A stretch of DNA of 64,000 nt from Eledone cirrhosa (lineage: Eukaryota), in assembly GCA_964016885.1 (NCBI GenBank), contig OZ024744.1, forward strand, positions 65,162,001-65,226,000. Reading direction: 5' to 3'. The position numbers and the translations under genes were made by a program. Below are positions 1,939 to 63,400 of this stretch, piece by piece. Below the pieces are notes generated by a model. It was not told the origin of the DNA, did not search any database, and saw only the letters and a list, made by a program, of their open reading frames with translations. Position 1 is the first letter of the stretch; each line of letters opens with the position of its first letter.

Positions 1939-3261
1939 CCTATGTAGACCCAACTGTGGGACTAGTTATAAAAACAACTGTAGTTTCTGAGATGCTAAAA
2001 GCACCTAGGAGGGTAGGATATGAGCTAATAAGATGCATAGTTAATCAAGTAGTTCTAATGGTGTCATATCTAATGATTGATACAACAGTATCATTGTAAA
2101 TTGCTACAAGAGCAAAGAAGATGTACTAGAGAGAAGTAACTACTGAGGTATCAAATTGATGGATCAGGTCATGAAATTTGCTGAAAGGATTATAGCATAA
2201 CTAATTTGAGATGGAATCAAGTTAGATGAGATGCAGTTTCGATTTAAGCCAGGTAAGGGTACAACCAATGTTTTCTTTCTGGTGAGACAACTACAGGAAA
2301 GGTACTTAGCTAAGAGTAAGCCACTCTATCTGGCTTTTGTAAATTTGGAGAAGGTGTTTGATAGGGTCTCTTGTTCTGTAATCTGGTGGGCACTTAGGAA
2401 GCTAGGTGTAGATGAATGGCTTGTGAAATTTGTGCAAGCAATGTATAAAGGTGCAACTAGTAGAGTGAGTGTTGGTAATGGGTACATTGATGTTTTTGAA
2501 GTGCATGTGAGGGTCCACCAGAATAAGCCCTCAATCAACTCCTGTTTATCATTATCCGCAGGCCATCACATGTGTTTAAAACTGGCTCTGAATGGGAGTT
2601 TGTATATGTTGATGCCCTAGTCCTTATAGCTGAATCCATAGGAGAGTTAGAGGCAAAATTTCAAGCATGGAAGAACAAAGTATTGAAAGGCCTAAAAGTA
2701 AACTTAGCAATGCTGAAAGTTTTAATAAATAGGAAAGAAGACAGGAAGCAGATACCACCAGGAAAGTGACATTGTTGATATGTCAGAAAGGGGTGGGTAG
2801 AAATTCTATAAGGTGCATACAATGTAATCTATGGATGCATAAGAGATGTAGTTGGATTGCAGGCAGACAATGGAAAAGAGAGTCTTTTTATGTAGTAGAT
2901 GCACAGGAGAAGTAAGCACTAAAATAATATGTGAAATAGATTCCTTCAGTTACCAGAGAGGCTCCTTAGAAGTTGTTGAGAGCTTTTGTTACCTAAACAA
3001 TCAAATTAACAGTGGGATAGGTTTCATTCTATGTATGATAGCTAGGATCAGAACAGATTGGAAAAGGTTTAGAGAACTGTTACCTCAGCTGACAACAATG
3101 GGCCTCTCTCTCAGGGTGAAGGGTAGACTGTATGATACATAGAAACCAAGCCAGAAACAGTTCTGTATGAGCAAGACACAGTCACCTAACCCGACTTGTC
3201 TCAAACAGGACAGCCCAAATTAGTTCTCTGCTATACGGATCAGTCAAGGTTGGTTTATATC

Positions 3262-5409: not shown

Positions 5410-6418
5410 ATAGATATATATCATCATCATCATCATCATCATCATCATATTTACATCCATTTGTTTATGCTTGTATGTGTTGGACAGGTTCTTTCCAAAA
5501 CAGCATCTTGCCACTTGTTGCATTCCTTTGTTATCTTGTTTGTGAGGTTCAACATCCTGAGATCAGCTTTCACTACCACTTCTATGCATGTTTTTCTCTT
5601 CCACTTGAAACACCTGGCACTTCTTTACCTAATTGTCATCAGCTAAGCCTTTTGCTCTTATAGCAAGTGTTTTTCTTTCAACTTATCTGTACTTCATTAT
5701 TCATGCACCCTAGAATTACACATCCAACAAAGCATGCCCATTTCATTTCTTTTCCAGCTTTACACATATACTGGATAACATGTCCACATCTTGCTATCAT
5801 GCAACCTTGCATTACATACTTAACCCTTTAGCATTTAAACCGGCCATAACCGGCCAGAATTCTCTCACCTCTTTCTATTCAAACAGGCCATAACCAGCCA
5901 CTCGTACTTATGTTAAGGTATTTTTCTCAAAATATATAATATCGAAATCTCATAGATTCGATAATATGTGAGATAATTATATGAGATAAAGTGTTTACCA
6001 TGAAAATACAATAGTATATATAGAGTAATGTAAATGGTAAAAGGTTAAACATCATATAATCTACATTATGCTTGAAGAGTGAATTTCTTTGTTGGCAGCG
6101 CCTTGAAATTTTTCTCTTCTTTTCTTATTCTAATCACTATGGTATCAGAGCACCCTCTTTCATAGCTAATTAGTGCAACAAGGTAACAGAAGCTATCAAT
6201 CACTTCTTTGAAGCCATATGAGTATTGAAAATTTTTTATTTTTCTAGTACTTTGGCTGCTAACTACTCCTGTACATCTGTCTTATTGAAAATTGACTCTA
6301 CCTTCTCCGATATCCTTCCTGGGATTACTTTTCTTTTACATTGAGTACACTTTATATAATTCCTACCTCATTTTCTACATATCAAGCATGGCCATTTTCT
6401 TGTCTTCTTTCCTACAAG
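5410..6418 (-). mobile_element. Highly decayed RTE 3' part, interrupted by a MITE
   Basis: (CAT)n tail at 5421-5447 and remnants of SFCYL and CWMCN motifs on the minus strand. Confidence 0.7.
5820..6048 (+). mobile_element. piggyBac-like MITE
   Basis: TTAACCCTTTAGCATTTA start, AAGGTTAA end, same body as the 3262 element. Confidence 0.88.
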
Positions 6419-11154: not shown

Positions 11155-11680
11155 ATCAGAGAAGTGGCCCTAATCAATATGCAGAAATTCCATACTGTTT
11201 ATCCAATGTAACCTATGGACACACATAGAGCAGCATTATAGGTAAGCTGAAAGAAAAAGTAGACTTCATATGTGGTAGATGTTCAGCAGTGGTTAAACAT
11301 AAGAACACACAACAAATTCTCTCAAATCTTCTTCAGAAGACAAACCAGAAGTAGTGAATAGCTTTTGCTATTTTGGTCTCACCAGCAGCAGAGTAAGGTG
11401 CATTGAAAACATAGTAACCAGAATAAGAACAGGGTAGAAAAAGTTCTGAGAGTTATTACCTGTGCTGGCAACAAAAACTTTTCCCTCCAAGTGGATGGCA
11501 AACTGTATGATGTTTACATATGAAATGTGATGCTTCATGTTAGTGAAACTTGTGCCTTGAATACAGACGATCTGCAGTGGCTGGAAAGAAATGGGGGTGT
11601 AATGATAATGTGCAAGTGTGACAGAATATAGACGTACTGCAAGAGGAACTGGATATAAAAGGAATCCAATGTAATATACA

Positions 11681-13041: not shown

Positions 13042-13231
13042 CGGCTAATGCGAAATAGTTTGTTTTAAGCAGTCTGCAAGTGCAGAAAGTTAACTACAGA
13101 TTAGTAGTCTCGTTTATAATGGTGGCAGCTGTAGTATTTACCAATAACATTAGTGGCTTTATTGGTGGAATTTTTTCATTCATTCTTAGACTGTTCATTG
13201 CTGTCAGCGCCCGCGCGTACCACAGCACACT

Positions 13232-13246
13232 CACACACATACATAC

Positions 13247-13310
<64 letters not shown>

Positions 13311-13396
13311 GTATGTATATATATATATATATGTGTACGTATGTATATATATATATATATATGTACGTATGTATGTGTGTATATATATATACGTAT

Positions 13397-13460
<64 letters not shown>

Positions 13461-13545
13461 GTACATATATATATATACGTACATATATATATATATATGT
13501 ACGCATGTTTGTATATATATATATATATATATATGTACGTATGTT

Positions 13546-13586
<41 letters not shown>

Positions 13587-13636
13587 GTATGTTTGTATAT
13601 ATATATATACATATATATATATATGTACGTATTATG

Positions 13637-13687
<51 letters not shown>

Positions 13688-13692
13688 GTATG

Positions 13693-13735
<43 letters not shown>

Positions 13736-13740
13736 GTATG

Positions 13741-13775
<35 letters not shown>

Positions 13776-13776
13776 G

Positions 13777-13811
<35 letters not shown>

Positions 13812-13860
13812 GTATTATGTACGTATGTTTGTATATATATATATATATGTACGTATGTAT

Positions 13861-13920
<60 letters not shown>

Positions 13921-14057
13921 GTATGTGTGTATATATATATATATATCCGTACACACACACACACATTCCTATCGACACACTGCAAACGCAAGAACACAAT
14001 ATAAACATTAATAAAAAAGAAAGAAAAATCATACACATACACACATACACATACAAA

Positions 14058-14090
<33 letters not shown>
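13232..14090. repeat. Long interrupted (TA)n tract with recurrent GTACGTATG spacers, followed by (CA)n
   Basis: Directly visible. This is the source of the YIYIYI ORFs. Confidence 0.97.
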
Positions 14091-14225
14091 TGATTTCATT
14101 CAGCCATGAGCTACGTATAAGTTTCAAACCATTCAGGTGTTGGGCAGACTAGCTGGAAATAGGAGGCCAACAAGGAGTGGTGATGGTGGTGGGGGATAGT
14201 AGTAGTAGTAGTGATGGTGGTGGAG

Positions 14226-21719: not shown

Positions 21720-22870
21720 TGAGTGTTCTCCAGTACCACATGTTGCCAATTCTTGCAGTCCTAAATCATCTCTGTTGTGAGATTCAGCTTCGTGAGGTTG
21801 GGATTCGCTACTTCATCCCAAGTCTTCCTTGATCTACCTTTTCCATGAATCCCATCCACTGAGATCTCTTTTATTTCTTTATACAGCTGTCAAATTCCAT
21901 ATGCATCACATGTCCATACCAACGCTATCTTCTCTCTTGTACACAAACATTAGATATCCATCAGAGCATATGTGATTCATTTCTTTCTAGCCTCCATTAC
22001 ATATATATCAGGAAATGAAGTTGACTGCTGCACTGACAAGTCATGTATGGGACCTGAAGGATAAAGGGATCTTATACATGATTAACTGGAACATTCTAGA
22101 TAAACCACACCCTTATAGTAAAGAAACAAAGATATGTTCAAGGGTCATGTTGGTGACACAACAAATAGCATGCAGTCCACACTGTAGAGTGGTTGTTTTG
22201 GAGCCACAACAAAAAGCTCCCAGTCCACACTGTAAAGTAGTCATTTTGGAGCCACAATAAAAAGCCCCAAGTCCATACTGCAAAATGGTCGTTTTATGCT
22301 TAATTTTTCTCTCTGCTTACTTATGCTACCATTCGTACACATTAATATTACAAATCCACTGGAGAATACTAACTTCATTTCTTTCTAGCCTTCACAGATC
22401 TTCCACCGTCAAAACCCGTATCACACTGCTATGTAGCTTTTCTGTAAACATGCAGGCATCATACAATCTACTCTTTACTCTGAAAGGAAAGTCCTTTGTT
22501 GTCAACAGAGGTGCCAACTCCCTACGTTTCTTCCATCCCATTATTACTCTAGCTATTATGCTTTCAGAGCATCCCCTGCTTCACTGCTAATTAAGTCAGT
22601 TAGGTACCAAAAGCTGCCAATAATTTCTAGAAAGTATCCCTGGCAGTTGAGAAAATCTATCATTTCAGATGTGTTCTTAGTAGTTATTTTTCATGCGCAT
22701 CTGCCACAATCAAAATTTATCTTCTCCTTGAACCTGCTTGTAATCCCACTACATCTCTTGTGCATCCATAGATTACACTGTGCGCAAATTATGCAATTTC
22801 TGCCAACTACTTTTTGACATATTAAACAGGGGTGTTCCACTTACTGTATTAGAGTCTTATCTTCTTTCCT
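21720..22870 (-). mobile_element. Decayed RTE 3' part
   Basis: Minus strand RWYGHVMH, RVIMGWKKRRELAPL and a PHD remnant WMHKRCSG. Confidence 0.75.
22015..22290 (+). mobile_element. Penelope GIY-YIG fragment fused to SINE/RTE-UTR-like repeats
   Basis: TAALTSHVWDLKDKGILYMINWNILDKPHPY...KIC resembles the PLE endonuclease C-terminal region. The same fusion occurs at 31040-31185. Confidence 0.65.
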
Positions 22871-22919
<49 letters not shown>

Positions 22920-23385: not shown

Positions 23386-23752
23386 AACAACACATCACCC
23401 GGTCTGAGAATTGAACTCACAACTTTTCGATTGCAAGGCCAATGGTCTAACCACTATATATAGTTAAAAGAATAGAGGTGTAACACACAAGTTATTATAT
23501 ATTGGTAAACGGAATAGAAAATGCTGACAAATTGTTCACAGTTGAAAAATGGTTTAATTAGGAATAAAAGAGTATTAGTGATTGTATGGGTTAGTATTCA
23601 GTTGTGGTTTTAAGTTTTTAAGTTTTTACCGGTTGCGCATTTCTAAATGCTTTTCAAAAATAATTTTGAGATAGAGTGTCCGTGCTGTTTGCAGCACGGA
23701 CATATTTAGAAACACACAGTAGACGCGTTCTTGAAGCTAGTAAAATGAGGTA

Positions 23753-23842
23753 TCCTCTTGATAAGTCGGCAGACCTCGCAAGGACTCTATATCTTTATGA
23801 TGTATTGTTTTTGTTTATGCCACGAAACTACGTAGTCGAGGA
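23753..23842 (+). ncRNA. Type I hammerhead ribozyme, U3-A8 core variant (copy 1)
   Basis: tcctc-TTGATAA-gt(c)ggca...tgccac-GAAA-CTACGTAG-TC-gagga, with a GUC cleavage triplet. Confidence 0.75.
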
Positions 23843-24345
23843 ATCTAGGAACAGTTTAGGTATGATACATTTTATTACTAATTATATCTAAATGTTTCTT
23901 CTCTCTTCATAATGTATTTTTAACTCTGATACTGGTTCAGTCTAATTCAACCGGATTGGTCTGTCCCAGTCATTCATTGAGCAACATCGGTGAGGTTGGC
24001 ACCATTGACTCACGGTTGGGTGTGGATGCATTCATGTATATGTGTGTGTCCGCATGTATCTGTGTGTTTCTAAATATATTGTTCATAACTCCCTCTGGTC
24101 GAGTAATCTTTGAAGTGTGGTGACTGCTGGAAAGCTGCCATTACTCATACTTCTCGCCTCCTTCACCACCTCTTCTGTGGCTTCGATATGAATACCCCCT
24201 CCGCCTCCGTGGTATTTTCTTCGGGGTTATAAGAGGCTTAGCTCTGTTTCTCGACCGTTATATCGCGTGACTATCTCCCCCTCCGCCTTTTGGGATTCTT
24301 TCTCACGTCATGTAGACGCGTTCTTGAAGCTAGTAAAATGAGGTA

Positions 24346-24435
24346 TCCTCTTGATAAGTCGGCAGACCTCGCAGGGACTCTATATCTTTATGATGTATTG
24401 TTTTTGTTTATGCCACGAAACTACGTAGTCGAGGA
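24346..24435 (+). ncRNA. Type I hammerhead ribozyme, U3-A8 core variant (copy 2)
   Basis: Same core and stems as 23753-23842. Confidence 0.75.
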
Positions 24436-24518
24436 ATCTAGGAACAGTTTAGGTATGATACATTTTATTACTAATTATATCTAAATGTTTCTTCTCTCTT
24501 CATAATGTATATATATAT

Positions 24519-27320
24519 AGCCAGGTAGATTATATCCTTACCAGAAGACGTGACAGAGTGTCTGTTGTAAACACTAAATCCCTCCCCCATGAAGAATGCA
24601 CCTCCCAACATAGACTGATAATTAGCGACCTCATAGTCAGGACGAGACGTACTCGACAGCAGAAGAGGACTATCCTCAGGAGAAAAATATGGAAGCTAAA
24701 GGACCCCACAGCCAGAAATAAATTTCAAAGCATATTACTTGATGCTTTCGACAGTAAGGAAGAACATTTAGAGTCGGACAATATAGAGGGACAGTGGGAA
24801 TTTCTGAAAGCAAACCTGCTGTTGGCGACAGACGAAGTCTGTGGCTGGAGCAGGCCTGTAGGCAGGAAGAGAGTAACATGGTGGTGGAACAGTAAGGTGG
24901 AGGGGTCAATCAAGGCCAAAAAGCAGGCTTGGAAAGTATGGCGGGATGGGGGAAGTAGAGTAGACTATCAAGTGGCCAGGAGGGAAGCTAGGAGAGAAGT
25001 GTACTTAGCAAGAAGGGAAGCTGAGGAAAGAAAGTTCAAGCATGTTCTACAACGCGATGACCAAAAACGTGAGGTGTTCAGGATTGCTAGGCAATGCGTC
25101 AAGGAAAACCGTGATATTGTCGGGGAGAAGTGTGTACTTAACGATGATGGCATACTTGCCATCACCGACACTGATAAGAAGGTAGCTTGGAAGTGTCACT
25201 ATGAAAGGCTACTAAACGAGGAGAATAAATGGGAGAAAGACAGTCTCCCCCATATCGACCTAATAGAGGGACCAGCAGTGTTAGTCGAGGGGAGTATAAT
25301 AAGTAAGGCAATCAAGGATATGAAGACGGGTAAGGCGGCTGGGCCTTCGGAAATAGTTGCTGAGATGCTGAAGGCATCTGGCACGGTGGGACACACCATG
25401 GTCACCCGCATAGTTAACCAAGTCGTACAGAATGGGGTTGTTCCGAAGGACTGGCATAGCAACATCATCGTTAACTGTTATAAGGGTAAAGGAGACGCCC
25501 TAGATAGGAGTAACTATAGAGGCATTAAATTAATCGACCAGGTCATGAAGGTCACGGAAAAAGTAATAGCGCAACTAATCAGAGAGAGAATTGACCTAGA
25601 TGAAATGCAGTTCGGGTTTGTGTCAGGCAAAAGTACCACAGATGCTCTTTTCATAGTACGACAACTACAGGAGAAGTACCTAGCTAAAGGTAAACCCCTC
25701 TACTTAGCTTTTGTCGACTTGGAGAAAGCCTTCGACAGAGTCCCTCGCTCCATTATCTGGTGGGCTCTTAGAAAACTAGGCGTTGACGAATGGCTTGTGA
25801 GGGCTATACAAGCCATGTATAAAGAAACAGTCAGCAAGGTTAGAATTAACAACGAATATAGTGAAGAGTTTAGCGTAAAAGTTGGCGTCCATCAGGGCTC
25901 TGTTCTCAGCCCCCTACTATTTATTATTGCCCTTCAGGCTATAACAGAGGAGTTCAAGACAGGCTGCCCATGGGAACTCCTATACGCAGACGACCTGACA
26001 CTCGTAGCGGAATCAATGGCCGAGCTAGAGAAGAAATTCCAAACATGGAAGCACGGCCTAGAGTCAAAAGGACTTAAAATTAACCTGGCTAAGACCAAAG
26101 TTCTAGTTTGTAGGAAAGAAAACAAGGCGGCGGTCCCTTCTGGGAAATGGTCGTGCTCGGTGTGTAGGAAAGGCGTAGGTAGAAACTCCATTTTATGTCC
26201 TAAATGCAAAGTATGGGTGCATAAAAGATGTAGTGGGATCACAGGTAAGCTAACTAAGAACATAGATTTTACATGTGGCCGGTGTTCTGGTGCAATAAGT
26301 AGCAGCAAGGGCCCACAAAATACTAGCTCTTTCAATTGCGCAGAGGGTTCTATAGAAATAGTGGACAGCTTCCGTTACCTGGGCGATAAAATCAGCAGTG
26401 GGGGAGGGTGCTCTGAAAGTACTGTAGCTAGAGTCAGAACTGGTTGGAAAAAGTTCAGAGAGCTTATACCACTATTAGCTGCTAAAGGGTTCTCCCTAAA
26501 AATGAAAGGCAGGTTGTACGATGCCTGCATACGAACAGCAATGTTGCATGGCAGTGAGACCTGGGCATTGTGTGCAGAGGATATACGCAGACTAGAGAGG
26601 AATGAAGTTTGCATGCTCCGCTGGATGTGTAACAGTAATATACGTGAACGGCAAAGCATAAACGAACTAAGGAAAAAATTAGAGATAAGAGGGATCAGAT
26701 GTTATTTACTCGAGAGAAGGCTACGTTAGTATGGACACGTGATGCTCATGAAAGTCGATAGCTGTATAACAAAGTGCAGGGCAATAAAGATAGACGGTAG
26801 TCACGGAATAGGCAGACGTAGAAAAACCTGGGACGAGCTGATAAACTCCGACATCACACACTTACACCTCTCCAAGACAATGTCACTGGACCGAGACCTT
26901 TGGCGGTACTCAGTAACAGAGAAGACCCGCCTTACCTAAATATATAGTAAAACCTACTCCAGCCAGTAGGCATCTCTAACAAAATACACCCCGTCCCACC
27001 ACCCCCACCCTCACCCCATCCACACCACCCCGTTCTATGTAAAGTTATGTTGGTGCCACGCCATCCAGGCCGAAACAAATGAGATCGTGTAGGTGTCACG
27101 ACAAAAAAACACACAGTCCACGCTGTAATGTGGCCGTGGCAGTCCACACTGTAAATATGGTTGGTGTTAGGAAGGGCATCCAACTGTAGAAAACCTGCCA
27201 GACAGTCCTATGCGAGCAAGACAATCACTCTTGCCTCAAGTGGGACTACCCCCGTCCAAACCCATGCAAGCGTGGAACACGGACGTTAAACGTTGATGAT
27301 GATGATGATGATGATGATGA
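24519..27320 (+). mobile_element. Young 5'-truncated RTE LINE with 3' UTR and (GAT)n tail, inserted in (TA)n
   Basis: Begins at SQVDYILT (end of the APE domain), carries the RT, and ends GGACGTTAAACGTT(GAT)n. TA repeats on both sides; closely related to 60023-64000. Confidence 0.97.
24558..26938 (+). CDS. RTE retrotransposon ORF (RT plus PHD finger), 5'-truncated, one premature stop at 26727-26729
   Basis: Motifs GKAAGP, NYRGIKL, QFGF, AFVDLEKAFDRV, GVHQGSVLSPLLF, LLYADD, FRYLG. TGG>TAG at RLRW compared with the 60420 paralog. Confidence 0.93.
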
Positions 27321-27482
27321 TATATATATATATATATATATATTAGAAAGTGAGGTGTTTTTTTTACAAAATGAAAAATAACCGAGGTGTCCTACACGAG
27401 TGAAAGTATAAAGAAAAAAAGATGAAATCTAAAATGCAACTGGAGTTTTATTTTTAAAAAAATATATATATTTATTTGGTTC

Positions 27483-27576: not shown

Positions 27577-27760
27577 ATAGGAACCAATAAGACCCCGACG
27601 GCTGAGCTCAAGCCGTTTCGACGGCTAATTCTGGACGTCATAACGGCTTGAGCTCAGCCGTCGGGGTCTTACTGGTTCCTATTACCCACTCTACTACCCC
27701 AAGTATTGAGTACTTTGGTGCGTTATGGTCCACCTGGTTCCTTACCACATTTCCTTCGTT
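27577..27760. mobile_element. Penelope-like fold-back fragment, paralog of 9420-9630
   Basis: Inverted arms 27577-27617 and 27642-27682, with (TA)n on both sides. Confidence 0.8.
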
Positions 27761-31390: not shown

Positions 31391-32957
31391 CTGGCACATC
31401 GAATGTGCTCAGGCGCTCACAGTCCTCTGGCAAATGGACCCGGCGATCAGTGGAGACTCCACTTCGACATTCTATAGAGGGTTGGTCCACAGCAAGTGCG
31501 ACGACACGCTCGGAGAAACTCTGGGCATAGAGGAGGACGAACTGGCCAGTCTGTTCGGTAGGACCTTCCGCCCGGGACCAATGGACAACTTCGAAAAGTC
31601 CCTGGCCTGGCAGTGCTACCGAGGAGCTCTACAGACACGGGCGCCCGGGTAGGGACCCTTCAAAAAAGATCTGTCCAAGATGCGTGTGCAACGAGGAAAC
31701 CGTCGCACACGCATTTGTACACTGCCCGGGTGTTACCGACCTGTGGGGCTATGTAGAACGACTATTGTCGCGGGTGGGACCAATCCAGTTGACCACCGAG
31801 TCCATTGTCATGATCAAATCGCCACCCTCCTTCAAAAACGAAGGAGAGGTGGTTTTCCTATGTGTTATGGCTATGGTGAAAGAGGTTATATGGTGGACGA
31901 GGTTAAAAGGGCTGAGGTCAGACACCTTTCTCTCCTGCGAACAACTGATTCGTTTTTTAAAATATCATTTTGGAAGAAGAATCAGGATGGAGAGAGAGGT
32001 GCTGTACCCCAGCAAATTTTATAAAAGGTGGGTGAATGTGGCAAAGATGGCCCAAGTGGTTGGGCCTTCTCTCTATATAAGCCTGTAGGTTGAGGAAAAA
32101 GAGGAAGAGAGGAAGGGAGTACTCACTCTTGGTGCTCCTGGAGATGAGGGTTGTACATTATTTCGGGGTGTGTACAACCCTGTGTAACACCTCCCCCTTA
32201 TTGGGGATTTCAATTGTTATTTGTTATTTTATTAATAGTTTTATTTTCATATACCTGTATGTAAACTCCCAATTTGTATTTGTCCCCTTCTTTTGTGCCC
32301 TTGTGGCTAATAAAGAAATTTATCTATCTGTCTATCTACGCATTCATACACTGCCCGGGCGTCACTGACCTGTGGGGCTATGTAGAACGACTATTGTCGC
32401 GGGTGGGACCAATCCAGTTGACCACCGAGTCCATTGTCATGATCAAACCGCCACCCTCCTTCAAAAACGAAGGAGAGGCGGTTTTCCTTTGTGTGATAGC
32501 TATGGCGAAAGAGGTTGTATGGTGAACAAGGTTGAAAGGGCTGAGGTCAGACACCTTTTTCTCCGGCCAACAACTGATTCTTTTTTTCAAATACCACTTT
32601 GGAAGAAGAATCAGGATGGAGAGAGAGGTGCTGTACCCCAGCAAGTTTTATGAAAGGTGGGTGAAAGTGGCGAGAATGGCCCGAGTGAATGGGCCTTCTC
32701 TCTATATCAGCCTGTAGGTTGAGGAAAAGGAGGAGGAGAGGAAAGGAGTACAAACTCTTCGTACTCCTGGAGATGAGGGTTGCACATTTTTTCGGGGGTA
32801 TGTGTTACCCATATGAACTGTCTCCCCTATTGGGGAAAATCGACTAACTTTTTAAATTACATTTGTGATAACATTTTACACGTTTTTTATTGTATGTAAA
32901 CTTCCCCCTTTGTATTTGTCCCCTTCTTTTGTGCCCCTGTGGCTAATAAAGAAACAT
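31391..32957 (+). mobile_element. Two tandem Tx1/L1-clade 3' fragments (31391-32318, 32339-32957) within (TATC)n
   Basis: C-terminal zinc motif CPRCVCNEETVAHAFVHC..LW. Both end CCC(T/C)TGTGGCTAATAAAGAAA followed by TATC repeats. Confidence 0.88.
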
Positions 32958-34504: not shown

Positions 34505-35670
34505 CGAAAAAGACTAAGGTCCTCGTAAGTTGACAAGAAAACAGAACCCAGATCCCCTCAGGGAAATGGATTTGCTCAGTAGGTAGGAAAGGTGTAGGTA
34601 GGAACTCCATCCTCTGCCCCAAATGCAAACAATGGGTACACAAGAGATATAGTGGGATCTTAGACAGCTTAGCTAAGAATGTAGGCTTCACATGTAGCAT
34701 CTGTGCTGAGACAGCAAACAGCAAACAGCCACAGGAAACAAGCACCACCAAACTCTGGGAGGGCTCTGTAGAAACAGTAGACAGCTTCTGCTACCTAGTT
34801 GACCGAATTAGCAGTGGAGGTGGTGTTCGGAAAGTACAGTAACTAGGGTAAGAACGGGGTGGAAGAAGTTCAGGGAACTACTGCCACTGTTAGCTGCAAA
34901 AGGCTTTTCCTTCAAAGTGAAAAGCAGACTGTATAATGCCTGTATACGAACAGCAATGTTACATGGTAGTGAGACCTAGGCACTGTCTGTAGAAGACTTG
35001 TGTAGATTAGAAAGAAACAAAGCTTGCATACTTTGCTGGATGTCTAATAGTAATATACGCGAACGGCAAAGCATAAACGAATTGAGAGAGAGACTGAGCA
35101 TAAGAGGAATCAAATGCTGTGTGCATAAGAGAAGGTTGCATTGGTATGGACATGAGATGCATATGAAGGATGACAGCTGCATAAAAAGGTGCAGAGCACT
35201 AGAAGTCGTGAAAGCCGTGGAGTGGGGAGGCCCAAGAAGACCTGGGATGAGGTGATAAAAGCCGACCATACCCATCTCAAAGGCATGACACAGGACTGAG
35301 ACCTCTGGCGTTACGCAGTAATACAGAAGACCCAAATTCCCACTGGTACAAGCCGAAGATGCAGCATATAGTCAATATGCCCCCACCCCCTCCCACTGCA
35401 AAGTGGTCATGGAGGTGCCATGGCAAAAAAGCACCCAGCCCACACTGTAAAGTGGACATGTAGGCACCACAGAAAAAAAGCACCCAGCACTCACTGTAAA
35501 TGAGGTTGGTGTTAGGAAGGGCATCTAGCTGTAGAAATCAAGCCAGAATCAGTTCCCGTATGAGCAAGACAAGGTCAGCCGACTGGACACTGCCCACAAC
35601 AGGACAACCCGTCTAACCCATGCTAGCGTGGAAGAACGGACGTAAAATGGTGATGATGATGATGATGATA
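34505..35670 (+). mobile_element. 5'-truncated, decayed RTE LINE with 3' UTR and (GAT)n tail
   Basis: KTKVLV..IPSGKWIC, RTGWKKFRELLPLL, RLHWYGH. Confidence 0.92.
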
Positions 35671-35741: not shown

Positions 35742-38700
35742 ATCATCATCATCATCATCATCATTTTACGTCCGCTTTTCCCTGCTTGCAAGGGTGGGAC
35801 AGGTCTTATTCAGCACAGCATCTCTTCACTCGTCATGGTCCTTCGTCATCTCCACCGTGAGCTTCAGTGATCTGAGGTCTGTTCTCACCACCTCCGCCCA
35901 TGATTTTCGTGGTCTACCTCTACCACGTCTTCCTTCAACTGGCATTTCCTGGAACTTCTTCACCCATTGGCCATCCTCCATGCGCATCACATGTCCATAC
36001 CACCTCAGTCTCCTCTCTTGCACACTACATTCTCTCAGACACAGTTTCTCTCTCAACATTGACATTGCACATCCAACAGAGCATGCTTGCCTCATTTCTC
36101 TCCAGCCATCGCATATCCTCTGCAGTTGCTGCCCATGTCTCACTATCATGCAGCATCGAGCTCCTCACAATGGCATCATATAACTGGCCTTTCGTACGCA
36201 GGGAGAAACCCTTCTTCGTCAGCAGAGGAAGCAGCTCTCTAAACTTCTTCCAACCTGTCCTTATTCTAGATACTATGGCCTCGGAACACTCCCCTCCCAT
36301 GCTAATCTGATCTCCTAGGTACCGGAAGCTATCCACCACTTCTATAGCACCCGCCTGCATTTGAAAAATGTGTCTATCAATACGACTTCTACTGTCTAAT
36401 TTCCCTGTACATCTACTGCATACATATTTCTCCCTACCTGTTAGTTTGCCTGCTATCCCACTACATCTCTTGTGTACCCAGGATCTGCAGTGTGTGCATT
36501 TTATAGAATTTATGCCAGTTCCTTTTCTGCATATCGAACATGGCCATTTCGCTGATGGAATCAGAGTTTTGTCCTCTTTTCTACTCATCAACACTTTTGT
36601 CTTAGTTAGGTTCACTCTCAGTCCTCTTGTCTCCAACTGCTGTTTCCATAGCCAGAATTTATTCTCTAGCTCCTCTACTGATTCTGCTATAAGAACCAGA
36701 TTGTCAGCATAGAGAAGTTTCCATGGACAGCCAGTCTTAAACTCCTGTTATGGCTTGGAGGACTATAATGAACAAGAGCGGGCTGAGGACTGAACCTTGA
36801 TGTACTCCTACTTGTATCTGGAATTCCTCACTAAACTCCATTCCTACCCTGACTTTACTGACAGTACCTCAGTACAAATTTTTCACTGTCCTCACAAGCC
36901 ATTCCTCAACACCTAGTTTCCTTAGGGACCACCAGATAACAGATCGAGGTACCCTATCAAAGGCCTTCTCTAGGTCAACAAAGGCTAAGTATAGTGGCTT
37001 ATTTTTCTCTAAGAACCTCTCTTGTAATTGTCTCACTAAGAAGAGGGCATCTGTTGTACTCTTCCCAGGCACAAAACCAAACTGCATCTCATCTAGTTTG
37101 ACCCTTTCTCTAATTAGTTGTGCTAATATCCTTTCTGCCACTTTCATGACCTGATCCATCAGTTTTATACCCCTATAATTGCTCCTCTCCAGAGCATCGC
37201 CTTTACCTTTGTAGCAATTTATGAGAATACTGCTGCACCAGTCTTTGGGTATGACACCACCATATATAGCCTGATTGATGATGCATGCAACCAGTTTAGT
37301 GCCTACGTCCCCTGATGCCTTCAGCATCTCAACAACTATCCCCGATGGTCCAGCAGCCTTTCATTTCCTTAATCGCCTCTTGGACCCTATATTCGTCAAT
37401 CTCAATAGCTGGTCCCTCTGTCGGATCTACTGAGGGCAATTTCTCTCTCTCTCCCATTCGTTCTCCACATTCATCAGTCTCTCATAATGACATTTCCAGG
37501 CCTCCTTTTTCTGATCATTCGTGACACTAAGTACACCGGCATCATTCCGGACACATTTATCTCCAACAACATCCTGATTTGCATTGACACACTGCCTTGC
37601 AATGTGGAACACCGCAGACCTCTGATCTTCCCGTCGCAGAACATTGGCAAACCTCCTACTCTCAGCCTCCCTGCGTGCTAAGTACACCTGATGTCTAGCT
37701 TCTCTCTTAGCGGCTGTATATCCTTCTCTACTCCCACCCTTTTTCCAAGCCTTCCATGCTAGTCTTTTGTCTCTAATGGCCTTATTTACTGTGCTGTTCC
37801 ACCACCAGGTCACTCTCTGTCTGGTTGGAGCTCTGCTCCAGCCACAAGTTTCATCAGTAGCCTGCAGTAAGTTGTCACGTAAGAAATTCCAGTTATTATC
37901 TATGTCATACGTCTCTAAATTGTTTTCTTTTTCGTCATACACATCTTGAAGGGCTTTCATAAATTTGTATTTTAGTGAAAGGTCTTTTAGCTTCCAGACC
38001 TTTCTTCTCCACACCTTCCTGTATGTCTCATTCCATCTCTTGCTTACTGAGATATCACTAACGACTAACCTATGGTATGCCTTGCTATTAGACACCATCT
38101 GCCTGTCCCGCTGCCTAACTAGTAAGAAGTCAATCTGGCTTATGTGCTCACCTGATTTGTAGATTATTAGGTGGTTGGCAGGTGTCTGGAAGTTAGTGTT
38201 GCAAATAGTCAGTGAACTTGCATCACAAAATTCAAGAAGTCTCACTCCTTCTTCATTTCTTGAGCCGTAACCGTGCTCACCATCTACCCTAGTGTAACCA
38301 TCCTGGAGCTGTCCAACATGACCATTGAAGTCCCCTGCTAGCATAACGATGTCTCCGTCCTCTGTCATTGCGGTTGTTTGTAAAATTTGCACGTAAAAGC
38401 AGTCTTTCTCTTCTTTGCCTAGGCCTACTTGGGGAGCATAGGCAGAGATGATTGTCAGTAGTGTCCTGCCTACAACTAATCTAAGCTTAATTGATTGATT
38501 ACTAACTCGAACTGCCTCTATTGTCTTATTGATCCATCTCTCAGCCAGGAAAATGCCTACTCCCCCTAACCCATCATCCTTACCTACCCAGAAAAGCTTA
38601 TAGCTAAGATGTTTGCCTGCGACTAGTCTCGCAGAGGCACCTCTCCATCTCACCTCTTGCACGCAGCACACATCCACATGCCTTCTCTCCAGCATCTCCG

Positions 38701-40774: not shown

Positions 40775-41580
40775 TCATCATCATCTTTTCCATGCTTGCA
40801 AGGGTCGAAGGGGTCTTTTCCAGCATAGAATCCCTCCACCTTTTGCTGTTCTTTGTCATCTCTGTGAGCTTCAGTGCTTTGATATCATCTCTCATAACCT
40901 CTGCCCAGGTCTTCTTTAGTCTTCCTTAGTCATCCTTAGTCTTCCTTTATTGCAGTTTCTTCCCCCTATCTGGTCTTCTTCCCCCTATCATCACTGTTCA
41001 TGTCTCACTACTATGCAACAACGCACATTGCACACAGGCATCATACAGCTGGCCTTTCATTCTCAAAAACAGTTTTCAAGCAAGCTAGTAGCGCTCTAAA
41101 CTTCTTCCAACTTGTTTTTATTGTAACTACTATGCTCTCAAAGTCAGGGCCTCCAAGAGAAATTTTGGCAAAGTGGTACAAGACCCCTCTGGGGCCCAAA
41201 GCAGGCAAAGATTTTTCTCAAAATGAATGTTGCATGTGTGCTGTGAGGCCTTCTTAGCTCTTGGGCCTCGGAACAAAGTACTAGCTGGACTGCCCTCTCA
41301 TAGGCCCTGCTCGTAGTATCCTCCTCCACAACTAATTAGATTACCTAGGTAGCAGAAGCTATCAACCACTTCTACAGATCCGTCCTGATATCGGAAAAGT
41401 TTACTTCACTGATGCTCTTACCACAACCTATCCCTGTGAATCTATTGCATACAAAATCTACTATTCTGTTTGCTTGCCCACTACACCCAATGTGTACCCA
41501 ATATTTACATTGTGTACATCAAATAGAGCTTTTACCTACACTTTTTCTACATTTCAAGTACAGCCACTTTCCTGTACCTG
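40775..41580 (-). mobile_element. Decayed RTE 3' part with an unrelated insert at about 41143-41320
   Basis: (CAT)n tail, SWKKFRAL, VVDSFCYLG and a PHD remnant. Confidence 0.7.
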
Positions 41581-47891: not shown

Positions 47892-49639
47892 ATCTCCACC
47901 AAATGTTTATAATGCAAAATCTATATAGACTCTAACCTATTTCCATGTCAGTACCGGTTCAGTGAATGTCGCTGATGAGATCTTAAATCTTAAAACTGCA
48001 CTGTCTGGTATTCTCGATTGATACTGACATATCTGTAATAAAAGTGAGAAAAATAAATTTTTTTGTAGCAAAAGAATATTCTTTTGCTCCCACATGTTTA
48101 TTATATATAAACATAAAGTATATGCTTTTATATTCACCCCTGTTATACTTAACGCTGTATTAGTGCTATATATACAAGTGGTCATGTCGGCAACACAACA
48201 AAAAGTGCCCAGTTCACACTGTAATGTGGTTGGCATTAGGAAACGCATCCAGCTGTAGAAAACCAGCCAGAAACAGTCTTATATGAGCAAGATACGCTCA
48301 CCCCAACTTGCCTCTAAATGGGACAAACCCGTCTGACCCATGCTAGCATGGAAGAAAGACGTTAAACAATGATGATGATGAAGATATATACACACTGTAA
48401 GGTAGTCATGTAGGTATCATGACAAAAAGCACCCAGCTCACACCGTAAAGTGGTTGTGTAGGTGTCAAATCAAAAGCACCCAGTACACATTGTAAATATG
48501 GTTGGTGTTAGGAAGGGCATCCAGCTGTAGAAATCTAGCCAGAAACAGTTCTATACAACCCGTCTAATCCATGCTAGCATGAAAAACAATGATGATGATA
48601 TATATATATAAATATGAATGAATATATATATATATATATCATCATCATCATCATCATCATATATATATATATATATATTTATTAAAATAACAGATTAAAG
48701 TTTAAACAAAGAATCGCTGCTTTCACCCTTAACGGGATCTTCTGAAACTAACAAATAAATATTTGCTCTACGGTTCTTATATATTTGATATATATTTATC
48801 CTTATTGAGCCCTCTTTGGATTTTAGTCTTCAAATTTATTATTATTACTATATATATATTATTACTATATATATATATTACTATATCTATATTATTACTA
48901 TATATATATATTACTATATATATATTATTACTATATATATATATATATATAAATGTATGTATAGTATATTTGGCAATATACTGTATGTTTAATTAAAAAC
49001 ATTTTGAAGACCATTCGCTATGAGTTTTAAAGTAGTCACTATGTCACTTACTTATTCTCGGCAAAAGCAAAGAAGACTGATCGACAGTCCTGTTTCTTGC
49101 TTGCTGTCATTTATCAACACCACTCACTCCCTTGCTTCTGCCGAGATTTATAGAAGCTGGATTCTTAGGAAATTCCAGTAATATTTAAGAGCTGATTAAA
49201 CAGAGCAGTTGACTGTCCAGCAAAATTTATATATATATATATCGTCATCATCATCATCATCACCATCTAACGTTTATTTTTTTCCATGCTTGTATGGGTT
49301 AGACAGGTTGTCCATGTTATGAGACAAGTCTGGCCAGTTGGCCACACCGTACCTTGCTCAAACGGAACTGTATTTTGGCTGGGATTTTTACAGCTGGATG
49401 CCCTTCCTAACACCAAACACGAGTCACAAGAGTGAGTACTGAAAAACATTTTTATTACGGCCAGCCTTGAGTAATGTTACTCTTGAGTTCCTTCCATGTC
49501 CTCACAGTGTCATCAAAAAAGGATTTCTTCTCTGATGTTCCTCTGAGAACACATGAGAAAACCCAGAGTAACATGAATCAAACAAAGACACACATAAAAA
49601 AACACAAAATAATTCCAACCATACACTTGTAGATACACT

Positions 49640-50247
<608 letters not shown>

Positions 50248-51770: not shown

Positions 51771-53228
51771 TTTATTGGAAGAAATGACCAGGAGTTAAAC
51801 TTCACCAACAAAATGATCTTTCAAGGGTTAGACAGGTCTTCTTCAACATATCTTTCCTCCACTTGTTGCGTTTTCTTTTTTCATAATCTCTTCTGTGAGG
51901 TTCAGAATGTTGAGATCTTGAGATCAGCTCTCACCACCTCCATCCAGATCTTTCTCAGTTTTACTCTTCTGCAGCTTCCTTCCACTGGGATCTTTTGGTA
52001 TTTCTTCACCCAACAGTTACCATCCATACACATCATGTCTCCATATTAGTGCAAATAATCTCTATTTATACACTGCTTCTTACACTCAGCTTTTCCCTCA
52101 GTTCATCTACGCTATATCATTCAATCATGTTAACATTACACATCCATCAGATCGTACTTACTTCATTTTTCTCTGGCATTTGCATAATCCATGCAATCAC
52201 TACTTATGTTTCACCACCATGCAGCATTGCACTTTGCACATAGGCAACATACCGTCTACTTTATACTTAGAGAGAAAATCCAGCAAGGGTACTAACTCAG
52301 TGAACTTTTTTTTTTATTCTGGTTATTATGCTTTCAGAGCAGCCCCCTCTACTGCTTATTAAGCTTTTAGAGCAGCCCCCTCTACTGCTTATTAAGCCAC
52401 CCAACAGAACCTCCATTGAACCTTCCTCAAATTGAAAATTGTTTATGTCACTTGTACACTTACCTTGTACATTTTCTACATACAAATCTACCCTTTCAGT
52501 TAGACTGCCTACAATCCCATTTTAAATCTTGTATATCCATATGTTACATTGATTACACCATATAGAATTCCTACCTAATCCTTTTCTGTATAACAAGCAC
52601 AACCATTTCACAATAACTTACTTTGGTCTTTACAAAGTTTTCTTTGAGGCTTCTTTATTCTAGGTTTTGTTTCCATGATGGAACTTTTTCTCAAGCTCTT
52701 TCAGATTTAACTATCAGATATTGATTATCAGTTGTTCTCATAGACCTTAATTCCTTAATTCCTCTGTTAAGACTTGGAGAAATATAATAAACAGAAGTGG
52801 GCTAAAGATTAAGCCTTGATGAACACATATCTGCACATTTCAATAAATTCATTATTTACTCCCACATTACTAACATCATATCATGCATTGCTTCTCCCAA
52901 ATGCACTGCTTCTCCCAAACCATTCATCTACACCTAGTTTTTTTAAAGATCACAATATGATGGATCATGGTACTCTGTCAAATGCTTTTTCCAGATCTAC
53001 AAAGGGGCTTACACTTGGCTAGAAATTTCTCTTGTTTCAGCAAGAAAAGGTGCTTCTTTTTGGCACAAAACCAAACAGCATCGCATCTAATTTAATCAGT
53101 TGTGCTACTTTCATAGCTTGATCCATCACTTTATTGTCTCTATAGTTATCACTTTCCTCTTATAATGATTAATGATTTTACTGCTTTGCTAACCACATAT
53201 TACCTAATTGACTATGCAAGTGAATAAC

Positions 53229-60419: not shown

Positions 60420-63400
60420 TTAGGTAAGGCGGGTCTTCTCTATTACTGAGTACCGCCAAAGATCTCGGTCCAGTGACATTGTCTTGGAGAGGTGTAAGTG
60501 TGTGAGGTCGGAATTTATCAAGTCGTCCCAGGTTTTTATGGGTCTGCCTACTCCGTGGCTACCGTCTATTTTTATTGCCCTGCACTTTTTTATACAGCTG
60601 TCGTCTTTCATGCGCATCACGTGACCATACCAACGTAGCCTTCTCTCGAGTAAACAACATCTGATCCCTCTTATTTCTAATTTTTCCCTTAGTTCGTTAA
60701 TGCTTTGCCGTTCACATATATTACTATTACACATCCAGTGGAGCATGCAAGCTTCGTTCTTCTCTAGTCTGCGTATATCCTCTGCACACAATGCCCAGGT
60801 CTCACTGCCATGCAACATTGATGTTCGTATGCAGGCATCATACAGCCTGCCTTTAATTTTTAGGGAGAACCCTTTAGCGGCTAATAGAGGTATAAGCTCT
60901 CTGAACTTTTTCCATCCAGTTCTGACTCTAGCTACTGTACTTTCAGAGCACCCTCCCCCACTGCTGATTTTGTCACCCAGGTAACGGAAGCTGTCCACTA
61001 TTTCTATAGAACCCTCTGTGCAATTGAAAGAGCTAGTATTTTGTGGGCACTTGCTGCTACTTATTGCACCAGAGCACCGGGCACATGTAAAATCTATGTT
61101 CTTAGTTAGCTTACCTGTGATCCCACTACATCTTTTATACACCCATACTTTGCATTTGGGACATAAAATGGAGTTTCTACCTACGCCTTTCCTACACACT
61201 GAGCATGGCCATTTCCCGGATGGGACCGGCGCCCTATTTTCCTTCCTACAAACTAGAACTTTAGTCTTAGCCAGGTTAATTTTAAGGCCTTTTGATTCTA
61301 GGCCGTGTTTCCATGTTTGGAATTTCTTCTCTAATTCGGCCATTGATTCAGCTATGAGCGTTAGATCATCTGCATATAGGAGTTCCCATGGGCAGCCGGT
61401 CTTGAACTCCACTGTTATAGCCTGAAGGGCAATAATAAATAGTAGGGGGCTAAGAACAGAGCCCTGATGAACACCAACTTTTACGCTAAACTCTTCACTA
61501 TATTCGTTGTTAATTCTAACCTTGCTGACTGTTTCTTTATACATGGCTTGTATAGCTCTCACAAGCCATTCATCAACACTTAGTTTTCTAAGAGCCCACC
61601 AGATAATGGAACGGGGGACTCTGTCGAAGGCTTTCTCCAGGTCTACAAAAGCTAAGTATAGGGGTTTACTTTTAGCTAAGTACTTCTCCTGTAGTTGTCG
61701 TACAATGAAAAGAGCGTCTGTGGTACTTTTGCCTGACACAAACCCGAACTGTATTTCATCTAGATCAATTCTCTCTCTGATTAGTTGCGCTATTACTTTT
61801 TCCGTGACCTTCATGACCTGGTCGATTAATTTAATGCCTCTATAGTTACTCCTATATAGGGCATCTCCTTTACCCTTGTAACAGTTAATGATGATGCTGC
61901 TACGCCAGTCCTTCGGAACAACCCCATTCTGTATGACTTGGTTTACTATCCGGGTCACCATGGTGTGTCCCACCGTTCCAGAGGCTTTCAGCATCTCAGC
62001 AACTATTTCCGAAGGCCCAGCCGCCTTACCCGTCTTCATATCTATGATTGCCTTACTTATTATACTACCTTCGACTTGCACTGCTGGTCCCTCTATTGGT
62101 CGATGTGGGGGAGACTGTCTTTCTCCCATTTATTCTCCTCATTTAGTAGCCTTTCGTAGTGACACTTCCAAGCTACCTTCTTATCAGCATCAGTGATGGC
62201 AAGTACACCATCATCATTAAGTACACACTTCTCCCCGACAATATCACGGTTTTCCTTGACACATTGCCTAGCAATCCTGAACACCTCACGTTTTTGGTCC
62301 TCGCGTTGTAGAACATGCTTGAACTTTCTTTCCTCTGCTTCCCTTCTTGCGAAGTACACTTGTCTCCTAGCTTCCCTCCTGGCTACTTGATAGTCTTCTC
62401 TACTTCCCCCATCCCGCCATACTTTCCAAGCCTGCATTTTGGCCTTAATTGACTCCTCCACCTTACTGTTCCACCACCATGTTACTCTCCTCCTGCCTAT
62501 AGGCCTGCTCCAGCCACAGACTTCGTCTGCCGCTATCAACAGGTTTGCTTTCAGGAATTCCCACTGTTCCTCTATATTGTACGACTCTAAATGCTCTTCC
62601 TTACTGTCGAAAGCATCAAGTAATATGCTTTTAAATTTATTTCTGGCTGTGGGGTCCTTTCTTTAGCTTCCATATTTTTCTCCTGAGGATAGACCTCTTC
62701 TGCTGTCGAGTATGTCTCGTCCTGACTATGAGGTCGCTAATTATGAGTCTATGTTGGGAGGTGCATTCTTCATGGGGGAGGGATTTAGTGTTTACAACAG
62801 ACACTCTGTCACGTCTTCTGGTAAGGATATAATCTACCTGGCTGGTATGTTCCCCTGATCTGTAGGTGATCAAGTGATTGTCTCGTTTTTTGAAGTTAGT
62901 GTTACAGATATATTTCTTTATTAGCCACAGGGGCACAAAAGAAGGGGACAAATACAAAGGGGGAAGTTTACATACAATAAAAACGTGTAAAATGTTATCA
63001 CAGATGGAATTAGTGTTACAGATAGTTAGGTTATTTGCGTCACAGAATTCCAGGATTCTGGAGCCTTCCTCATTTCTAGTACCAAACCCATAGCCTCCGT
63101 GGATTCCATCATAGCCGTCACAATGTTGTCCAACGTGACCATTTAGGTCGCCAGCAATAATTATATAGTCACTGTCGGTTATTTGGGAGGTAGTGAGCAT
63201 CAGTGTCTCATAGAAACTGTCTTTTATAGCGCCAGGCAGTCCGGATTGGGGCGCGTATGCAGATATTACCGTCACAGTAGTTCTATTTAGAACAGGTCTT
63301 ATTTTAATTATTCTGTCATTCACTCTATTTACGTCTATTATCTTATCCACCCATTTTTCTGCTACCATGAATCCTACCCCACCCAGCCCATTGTCATTTC

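Follow-up and report, generated by a model that had tools for sequence, protein, structure and literature searches.

Results

A PHD finger inside the reverse transcriptase of an RTE element

The window, i.e. the whole 64-kb stretch of Eledone cirrhosa DNA that was analysed, contains a 5'-truncated copy of an RTE LINE together with several relatives (Table 1). The motif CSVC-x10-CPKC-x4-H-x2-C-x14-CGRC occupies exactly positions 26154-26285, in frame with the open frame 24459-26729, and is flanked by KTKVL (26091-26105) and FRYLG (26370-26384). This bears out the exact C4HC3 motif that a preliminary description of the DNA had placed within the reverse transcriptase (RT). The numbering of RT motifs 6 and 7 is the one that we take to apply to this element.

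Table 1. Positions of the RTE copy, its PHD finger and related copies in the window
Feature	Position	Strand	Basis or remark
RTE ORF of the window copy, 5'-truncated inside the endonuclease end	24519..26939	+	one premature stop, 26727-26729
RT catalytic motif YADD	25983..25994	+	
RT motif 6, GLKINLAKTK	26070..26099	+	aligns to R2 motif GLKVQAKK
Whole insert with two variable linkers	26106..26345 (edges approximate)	+	spacing of motifs 6-7
PHD finger core (C4HC3), Pygopus/TAF3-like, basic	26154..26285	+	Pfam PF00628, AF2, fold matches
RT motif 7, FRYLG	26370..26384	+	weak alignment to R2 YLG
3' UTR and (GAT)n tail	26940..27321 (tail 27295-27321)	+	
(AT)n run directly after the (GAT)n tail	27320..27344	.	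second (AT)n run at ~24506-24519, 5' end
Decayed copy with PHD remnant	2578..3139	+	remnant ~2778-2888 (tblastn)
Decayed copy with PHD remnant, eight ligands readable	22476..22876	-	remnant ~22700-22820 (tblastn)
Decayed copy with PHD remnant	34510..34919	+	remnant ~34570-34705 (tblastn)
PHD finger of diverged family B copy	36409..36540	-	~62% aa identity, eight ligands intact
PHD finger of related subfamily copy	61074..61205	-	His>Tyr

The isolated finger was recognised by the Pfam PHD profile PF00628 with 31.1 bits (E 2.4e-7; cut-off 24), so that the PHD assignment passed this check; at the same cut-off the 736-aa frame of the window copy scored 24.1 bits and an intact genomic ORF 26.2 bits. 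A chance motif and a C1 or RING finger were ruled out, as the PHD profile scored above its cut-off and the C1 and RING profiles below. Judged from its sequence, the finger would bind two zinc ions.

The diverged copy of family B has all eight ligands, as had been described, and its finger scored 26.5 bits with PF00628. The replacement of the histidine in the copy at 61074-61205 was likewise found, with 20.4 bits, below the cut-off. All five remnants named in the preliminary description were recovered by tblastn, i.e. those in the decayed copies of Table 1 and those at ~11156-11290 and ~41432-41575, and two more, at ~52480-52608 and ~6296-6403, were added. Elsewhere in the window a fragment of another LINE (31531-32088) showed a weak zf-RVT match below the cut-off (E 4e-4), and long microsatellite tracts at 13059-14095 and 49578-50246 yield spurious open frames.

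The element and its copies in the genome

The window copy has inserted into an (AT)n microsatellite, (AT)n being present at both of its ends. The two units of a 204-nt direct repeat lie 593 nt apart (23719-23922 and 24312-24515; 99% identity), the second one reaching exactly to the element's 5' junction. Downstream, between (TA)n runs, lies a 47-nt inverted repeat of the small-MITE-like type (27577-27682; 94%, 12-nt spacer), and a sequence akin to it follows the tail in locus L032.

Among ten long copies taken from the genome at least some are intact, with endonuclease, RT and PHD finger in a single frame of more than 1,000 aa; a 1,037-aa stretch of an intact copy matched both PF03372 and PF00078. 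A separate ORF1 was not seen in the intact finger-bearing copies, which have one long frame. All 150 scored matches of the 106-aa finger region (the best 150 of 61,614 first-look candidates in the 3.0-Gb assembly) were 97-100% identical, and for the family B query 150/150 scored matches in the same genome were 94-100% identical. The median pairwise identity was 97.7% in family A, the family of the window copy, and 95.2% in family B. Family A is abundant and, by this high copy identity, a young RTE LINE family. A host exon or an assembly chimera was ruled out by the presence of at least 150 copies at 97-100% identity and of 323 clusters (50% identity) at E 1e-10 or better.

Tails and local insertion sites

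Of the family A loci 35 of 38 have a (GAT)n tail, and of the family B loci 28 of 30; one family A copy, at L029, ends in a poly(A) run and not in (GAT)n. The tail runs straight into (AT)n in 19/35 family A and 14/28 family B loci (33/63 finger-bearing loci together), and (AT)n accounts for 2.6% of the window positions. In the controls (AT)n followed the tail in 0/28 CR1 copies and in 2/8 finger-less RTE-like copies (12 of the 20 were not scorable). At four loci (L015, L035, L109 and L113) two finger-bearing RTE copies, often one per family, share an (AT)n run in which their tails meet, which suggests repeated use of the same microsatellite by these elements.

The finger as cause of the (AT)n targeting is unsupported, since the finger-less RTE-like copies in (AT)n, 2/8, do not set it apart (p=0.26). 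Finger-less RTEs have a TA target preference too, described as a Tn-TA signature in the accessible text of PMC13295347, and for this reason the choice of (AT)n is not credited to the finger.

Copies of family A lie mostly in CpG-poor DNA

Flanks of 7 kb were collected for 20 copies each of family A, family B, CR1, finger-less RTE-like and gypsy elements, together with 40 random regions, and rows with fewer than 800 unique bases were dropped. The CpG o/e of the random regions (L280-L299, L352-L371) was bimodal, with 12/39 at or below 0.35 and 27/39 at or above 0.52. With a threshold of 0.5, which was chosen after these bimodal values had been seen and applied to small samples from top-scoring matches, the unique sequence was CpG-poor around 15/19 family A copies (median 0.27), 9/18 family B copies (0.45) and 16/20 CR1 copies (0.27). 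The corresponding numbers were 7/20 (0.62) for the finger-less RTE-like elements, which are older (91.9% vs 97.7% identity) and distant (~25% aa), 7/19 (0.72) for gypsy, which inserts by another mechanism, and 12/39 (0.66) for the random regions; selection after insertion can also shape location. In rank tests family A differed from random (p=0.013), gypsy (0.012) and RTE-like flanks (0.026). Family B flanks were not significantly CpG-poor (9/18, p=0.28; rank test vs random 0.30).

Further family fragments were present nearby in 11/20 family A, 15/20 family B and 10/20 CR1 regions, and in 4/20 RTE-like, 3/20 gypsy and 3/40 random regions. When the controls other than CR1 were divided by CpG content, such fragments occurred in 9/26 low-CpG vs 1/52 high-CpG regions (p=1.3e-4), and in the random regions alone in 3/12 vs 0/27 (p=0.024). 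The window's own unique DNA is CpG-poor as well (o/e 0.37), and of the 148 unique frames that were searched for a host exon or gene in the 64 kb none matched Pfam.

Loss of CpG is a mark of germline methylation, and CpG-rich promoters carry H3K4me3. In O. bimaculoides methylation is described as lying on the bodies of genes with broad expression rather than on transposons (PMC9476566, accessible text). The CpG-poor regions are likely to be methylated bodies of broadly expressed genes, the term gene body being read here from CpG alone. Some LINEs may show this bias in general, as a CR1 family without a proven PHD finger occupies the same compartment. This young CR1 family (L301, L302, L305-L309; e.g. 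L302:2877-4202) has an ORF1 with a cysteine-rich N-terminus (C2-C2-CxxC-long loop-C2), which looks PHD-like by eye and gave no match with the Pfam PHD profile.

Range and origin of the lineage

In a protein search with the finger region the strict pattern was present in 113 of the 120 relatives listed (the best 120 of 135 matches). When relatives were ranked on the RT core alone, a finger match was found in 109/120 and the strict pattern in 100/120 (the best 120 of 3,977). Ten of the other 11 end, shift frame or are rearranged at the finger and so have no in-frame finger; the eleventh has a deletion there that takes parts of both motif 6 and motif 7 with it. Most matches carry no species name; those named are from O. 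bimaculoides (a 62% identical protein), Hydractinia, Mercenaria, Branchiostoma and Neoarius. An octopus-only novelty was ruled out by these carriers in Hydractinia, clam, amphioxus and catfish. The pairing of RVT_1 with PHD is already present in the automated Pfam annotation of many matches, the ESM Atlas yielded clusters of PHD or of PHD plus RT, all of them unnamed, and a pattern scan of viral contigs for the finger found none. Eukaryotic RTE elements, some of them whole frames, were met in bacterial genome records (L204-L219, of which L219 is titled a complete plasmid); these are probably contamination.

Among the matches listed for a search seeded with six finger-less RTEs the finger pattern was found in 0/120. 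The distance between motifs 6 and 7 was 33-46 aa in 113 measurable finger-less sisters, a sample dominated by plant-like and catfish elements, and 33-37 aa in 111 of these. In the carriers it is ~97 aa, the insert being ~60 aa longer than the finger-less loop. The RT of the finger lineage is 38-43% identical to that of the nearest finger-less RTEs compared, which are plant-like, catfish and Rex3-like. In a tree calculated without the insert columns 43 carriers separated from 14 non-carriers with support 100/99, two long outgroups being left out along with eight rows that were redundant or partial; with those rows kept the carriers still formed a single branch (SH-aLRT 92). The plant-like and fish elements that group with the window RT are presumably RTEs. 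A single gain of the finger in one RTE lineage is the simplest reading of these sequences, in which the finger marks a whole, widespread animal RTE lineage.

Predicted fold, pocket and charge

An AF2 model of an intact natural copy, calculated with 128 relatives, had a pLDDT of 91 and a pTM of 0.83; the finger scored 89-94 and its two linkers 74 and 55. In this model the finger hangs from the strand after motif 6 and the chain rejoins the strands before motif 7. It is predicted to fold as a separate domain on the palm hairpin that leaves the RT undisturbed, and the rest of the model matches L1 ORF2p (E 2e-36; Z 26.2, rmsd 4.5, 607 aligned). The model of the isolated finger (pLDDT 75.5) has its best fold matches in the TAF3 and Pygopus fingers. 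With Foldseek all rows among the matches listed were PHD-containing chains (best E 6.6e-3, prob 1.0), and TAF3 5xmy was matched with prob 1.0 and an rmsd of 1.9 A over 47 columns. In a VIA comparison the finger matched Pygo 3zpv best (Z 5.5, rmsd 3.1, 53 aligned), a Z score that is low, as for a 50-residue domain. The predicted structure thus recovers the PHD fold suggested earlier, with Pygopus and TAF3 as its nearest relatives.

The pocket residues were mapped by sequence alignment to Pygo2. At the positions of Pygo Y341, V350, A356, I357 and W366, an aromatic residue was found in 110, Val in 113, Ser/Ala/Cys in 129, Ile in 117 and Trp in 127 of 129 proteins. At those of D352 and E360 neither D nor E is among the five commonest residues, the residue after Cys3 is S/T/G/N/Q and not acidic, and the net charge of the finger is +1 to +11 (mean +6.6) in the same 129 rows. 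Since the five pocket residues are kept and equivalents of D352 and E360 are absent, the pocket appears to be retained and the acidic grip on the H3 tail lost.

H3K4me3 readers of the ING2/BPTF type have a cage of Trp or another aromatic residue and Met, and an acidic residue after Cys3. Such a reader, with which the tryptophan had been compared, is unsupported here. The Trp and the aromatic residue are present, but the Met is replaced by Ser/Ala/Cys and Cys3 is followed by S/T/G/N/Q; the nearest folds are Pygopus and TAF3, of which Pygopus has two acidic histone-contact residues that this strongly basic finger lacks. The absence of the cage Met, which had been noted, was confirmed, but it is compatible with a pocket, Pygopus having Ala at this position (PMC2726290, accessible text) and this family Ser/Ala/Cys. 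A complex predicted from the finger, two zinc ions and residues 1-41 of the host H3 tail scored 0.00 and is uninformative.

Selection and conservation

Fragments were grouped by identity into three bands (of 7, 7 and 17), for which the dN/dS of the finger was 0.052, 0.106 and 0.129, respectively. In the same bands it was 0.069, 0.049 and saturated for the RT/thumb, and 0.10-0.23 for the linkers. The sample consisted of 31 fragments from the window and flanks, 29 of which were not chosen on the finger, and includes the window copy and L097. By this measure the finger is under purifying selection (0.05-0.13), the outcome on which the preliminary description had made its case depend.

Conservation over 129 proteins, which were chosen for intact ligands, was higher in the finger core (0.67) than in the endonuclease (0.61) and the thumb region (0.57). 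Outside the ligands the surface residues W, G, L and N were kept in 127, 124, 123 and 126 of 129 rows, and loop 2 has the conserved non-ligand residues SGI.G.L. Invariance of the ligands themselves is circular in this alignment, whose rows were selected for an intact pattern; the unbiased figures are the RT-ranked counts, 109/120 and 100/120. A tally of shared versus single substitutions within the family was set aside because its loci had been picked on similarity to the finger.

Discussion

The PHD finger within the RT of this RTE lineage is real, selected and lineage-defining, and it is apparently undescribed. A PHD domain inside an RTE reverse transcriptase was not met in the searchable literature, which excludes Repbase, Dfam and subscription journals, and PMC2887409, PMC3849965 and PMC10830420 hold no relevant PHD passage.

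The finger insert occupies the same position between motifs 6 and 7 as insertion 6a of R2; the R2 sequence aligns to the window RTE at motif 6, and at motif 7 only weakly. According to the accessible text of PMC10499050, 6a of R2Bm reads an upstream target motif, its deletion blocks nicking and it is called unique to R2. By analogy the finger would face upstream target DNA, as 6a does.

We put at about even the chance that the finger is a contact with target chromatin that biases insertion to CpG-poor, active gene-body chromatin, the evidence from location being correlational. As a separate domain on the palm hairpin it would be turned toward the target DNA upstream while target-primed reverse transcription takes place. 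Nucleosomal or linker DNA would be held by its basic face, and a Pygopus-type pocket (aromatic, Val, Ser/Ala, Ile, Trp) could add a weak methyl-lysine read-out. This grip on chromatin would bias new insertions toward CpG-poor regions, and the preference for (AT)n at the local scale would be due to the endonuclease and to pairing of the tail, not to the finger. From the earlier proposal of a chromatin- or RNA-reading module that steers integration, a selected PHD fold in the RT stands, and the steering is supported by correlation only, through the 6a position and the CpG-poor copies; the ING2/BPTF-type reader is unsupported. In a wider version, which we advance only tentatively, the old and widespread lineage would aim at active, methylated gene bodies with a reader built into its polymerase, 6a would be a reusable docking site for targeting modules of non-LTR reverse transcriptases that R2 and RTE filled independently of each other, and the finger would read a mark or nucleosome surface new for PHD fingers.

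APE-type LINEs are thought to choose their sites mainly via the endonuclease. The finger might serve the enzyme itself by gripping the template RNA, its hybrid with DNA or an adjoining domain, for processivity or for ribonucleoprotein assembly without ORF1, and the genomic bias would then reflect endonuclease preference, accessibility or selection. The strongly positive charge without a conserved acidic residue, the one long frame of intact copies in which no separate ORF1 was seen, the CR1 family without a proven PHD in the same CpG-poor compartment and the TA-site preference of finger-less RTEs (PMC13295347, accessible text) all agree with such a role. We nevertheless consider it doubtful, given that finger-less sister RTEs are abundant and intact, that the pocket residues with which Pygopus takes up the histone tail belong to the best conserved ones, and that two finger-less families (RTE-like and gypsy) lack the CpG bias.

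That the finger is a true Pygopus-type methyl-histone reader, of H3K4me1/2 or another methyl-lysine of transcribed chromatin, which alone steers insertion, seems unlikely. The five Pygo pocket residues are kept, the best predicted fold matches are Pygopus and TAF3, and Pygopus structures are likewise the best matches of CR1/L2 PHDs (PMC4120745). However, equivalents of D352 and E360 are missing, and in the accessible text of PMC2726290 the E360 mutant of Pygo lost binding and the binding face is negative, against +6.6 here. The copies, moreover, lie in CpG-poor DNA, and H3K4me3 at CpG-rich promoters. Binding of a host protein that would tether the element to transcribed chromatin, or help it into the nucleus, is very improbable: PHD fingers can be adaptors, as in Pygopus, which binds BCL9 opposite the pocket (PMC2726290, accessible text), and loop 2 has conserved non-ligand residues, but as the finger is conserved from cnidarians to fish, any such partner would itself have to be highly conserved.

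For two decades one could only guess at the role of PHD fingers carried by transposons. Here the finger is part of the enzyme that carries out the insertion, the element has a single frame and young intact copies, and its sister lineages lack the finger, so that the guess becomes directly testable by deletion. If the preferred reading, a contact with target chromatin, is true, it explains how a family among the most abundant of the genome is packed into one compartment, and the site between motifs 6 and 7 of non-LTR reverse transcriptases would tolerate a whole folded domain.

The finger lineage resembles the rest of the RTE clade in its single APE and RT frame, short-repeat tail, 5' truncation and TA-rich targets, and differs from it in the ~60 extra residues and the PHD finger between motifs 6 and 7. 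A study of octopus RTEs (RTE-2_OV and an O. bimaculoides RTE) names a C2H2 finger and, in its accessible text, no PHD domain (PMC9115989); those elements may or may not belong to the present family. R2 shares the position between motifs 6 and 7, with no shared ancestry implied: 6a is a short, sequence-specific loop, whereas the RTE, an APE-type element, has a folded zinc domain at that site. With Pygopus and TAF3 the finger has the fold and five pocket residues in common, but its loops are shorter, it lacks equivalents of D352 and E360 and it is net positive.

PHD fingers of CR1/L2 elements were reportedly recognised by Kapitonov and Jurka in 2003. They are part of ORF1 or, in elements with a single ORF, lie at its N-terminus, with Pygopus 3zpv and 2vpb as best structural matches, and the structure of ORF2 is called highly constrained (PMC4120745, accessible text); the finger described here, in contrast, is inside the RT. 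A targeting role for the CR1/L2 PHDs is suggested in the accessible parts of PMC4120745 and PMC6673714. Chromodomain-carrying gypsy and MBD-carrying Copia elements have likewise captured a chromatin-reader domain that is proposed to guide insertion; these are LTR elements, and the bias proposed for them is to heterochromatin or methylated repeats (PMC6673714, accessible text).
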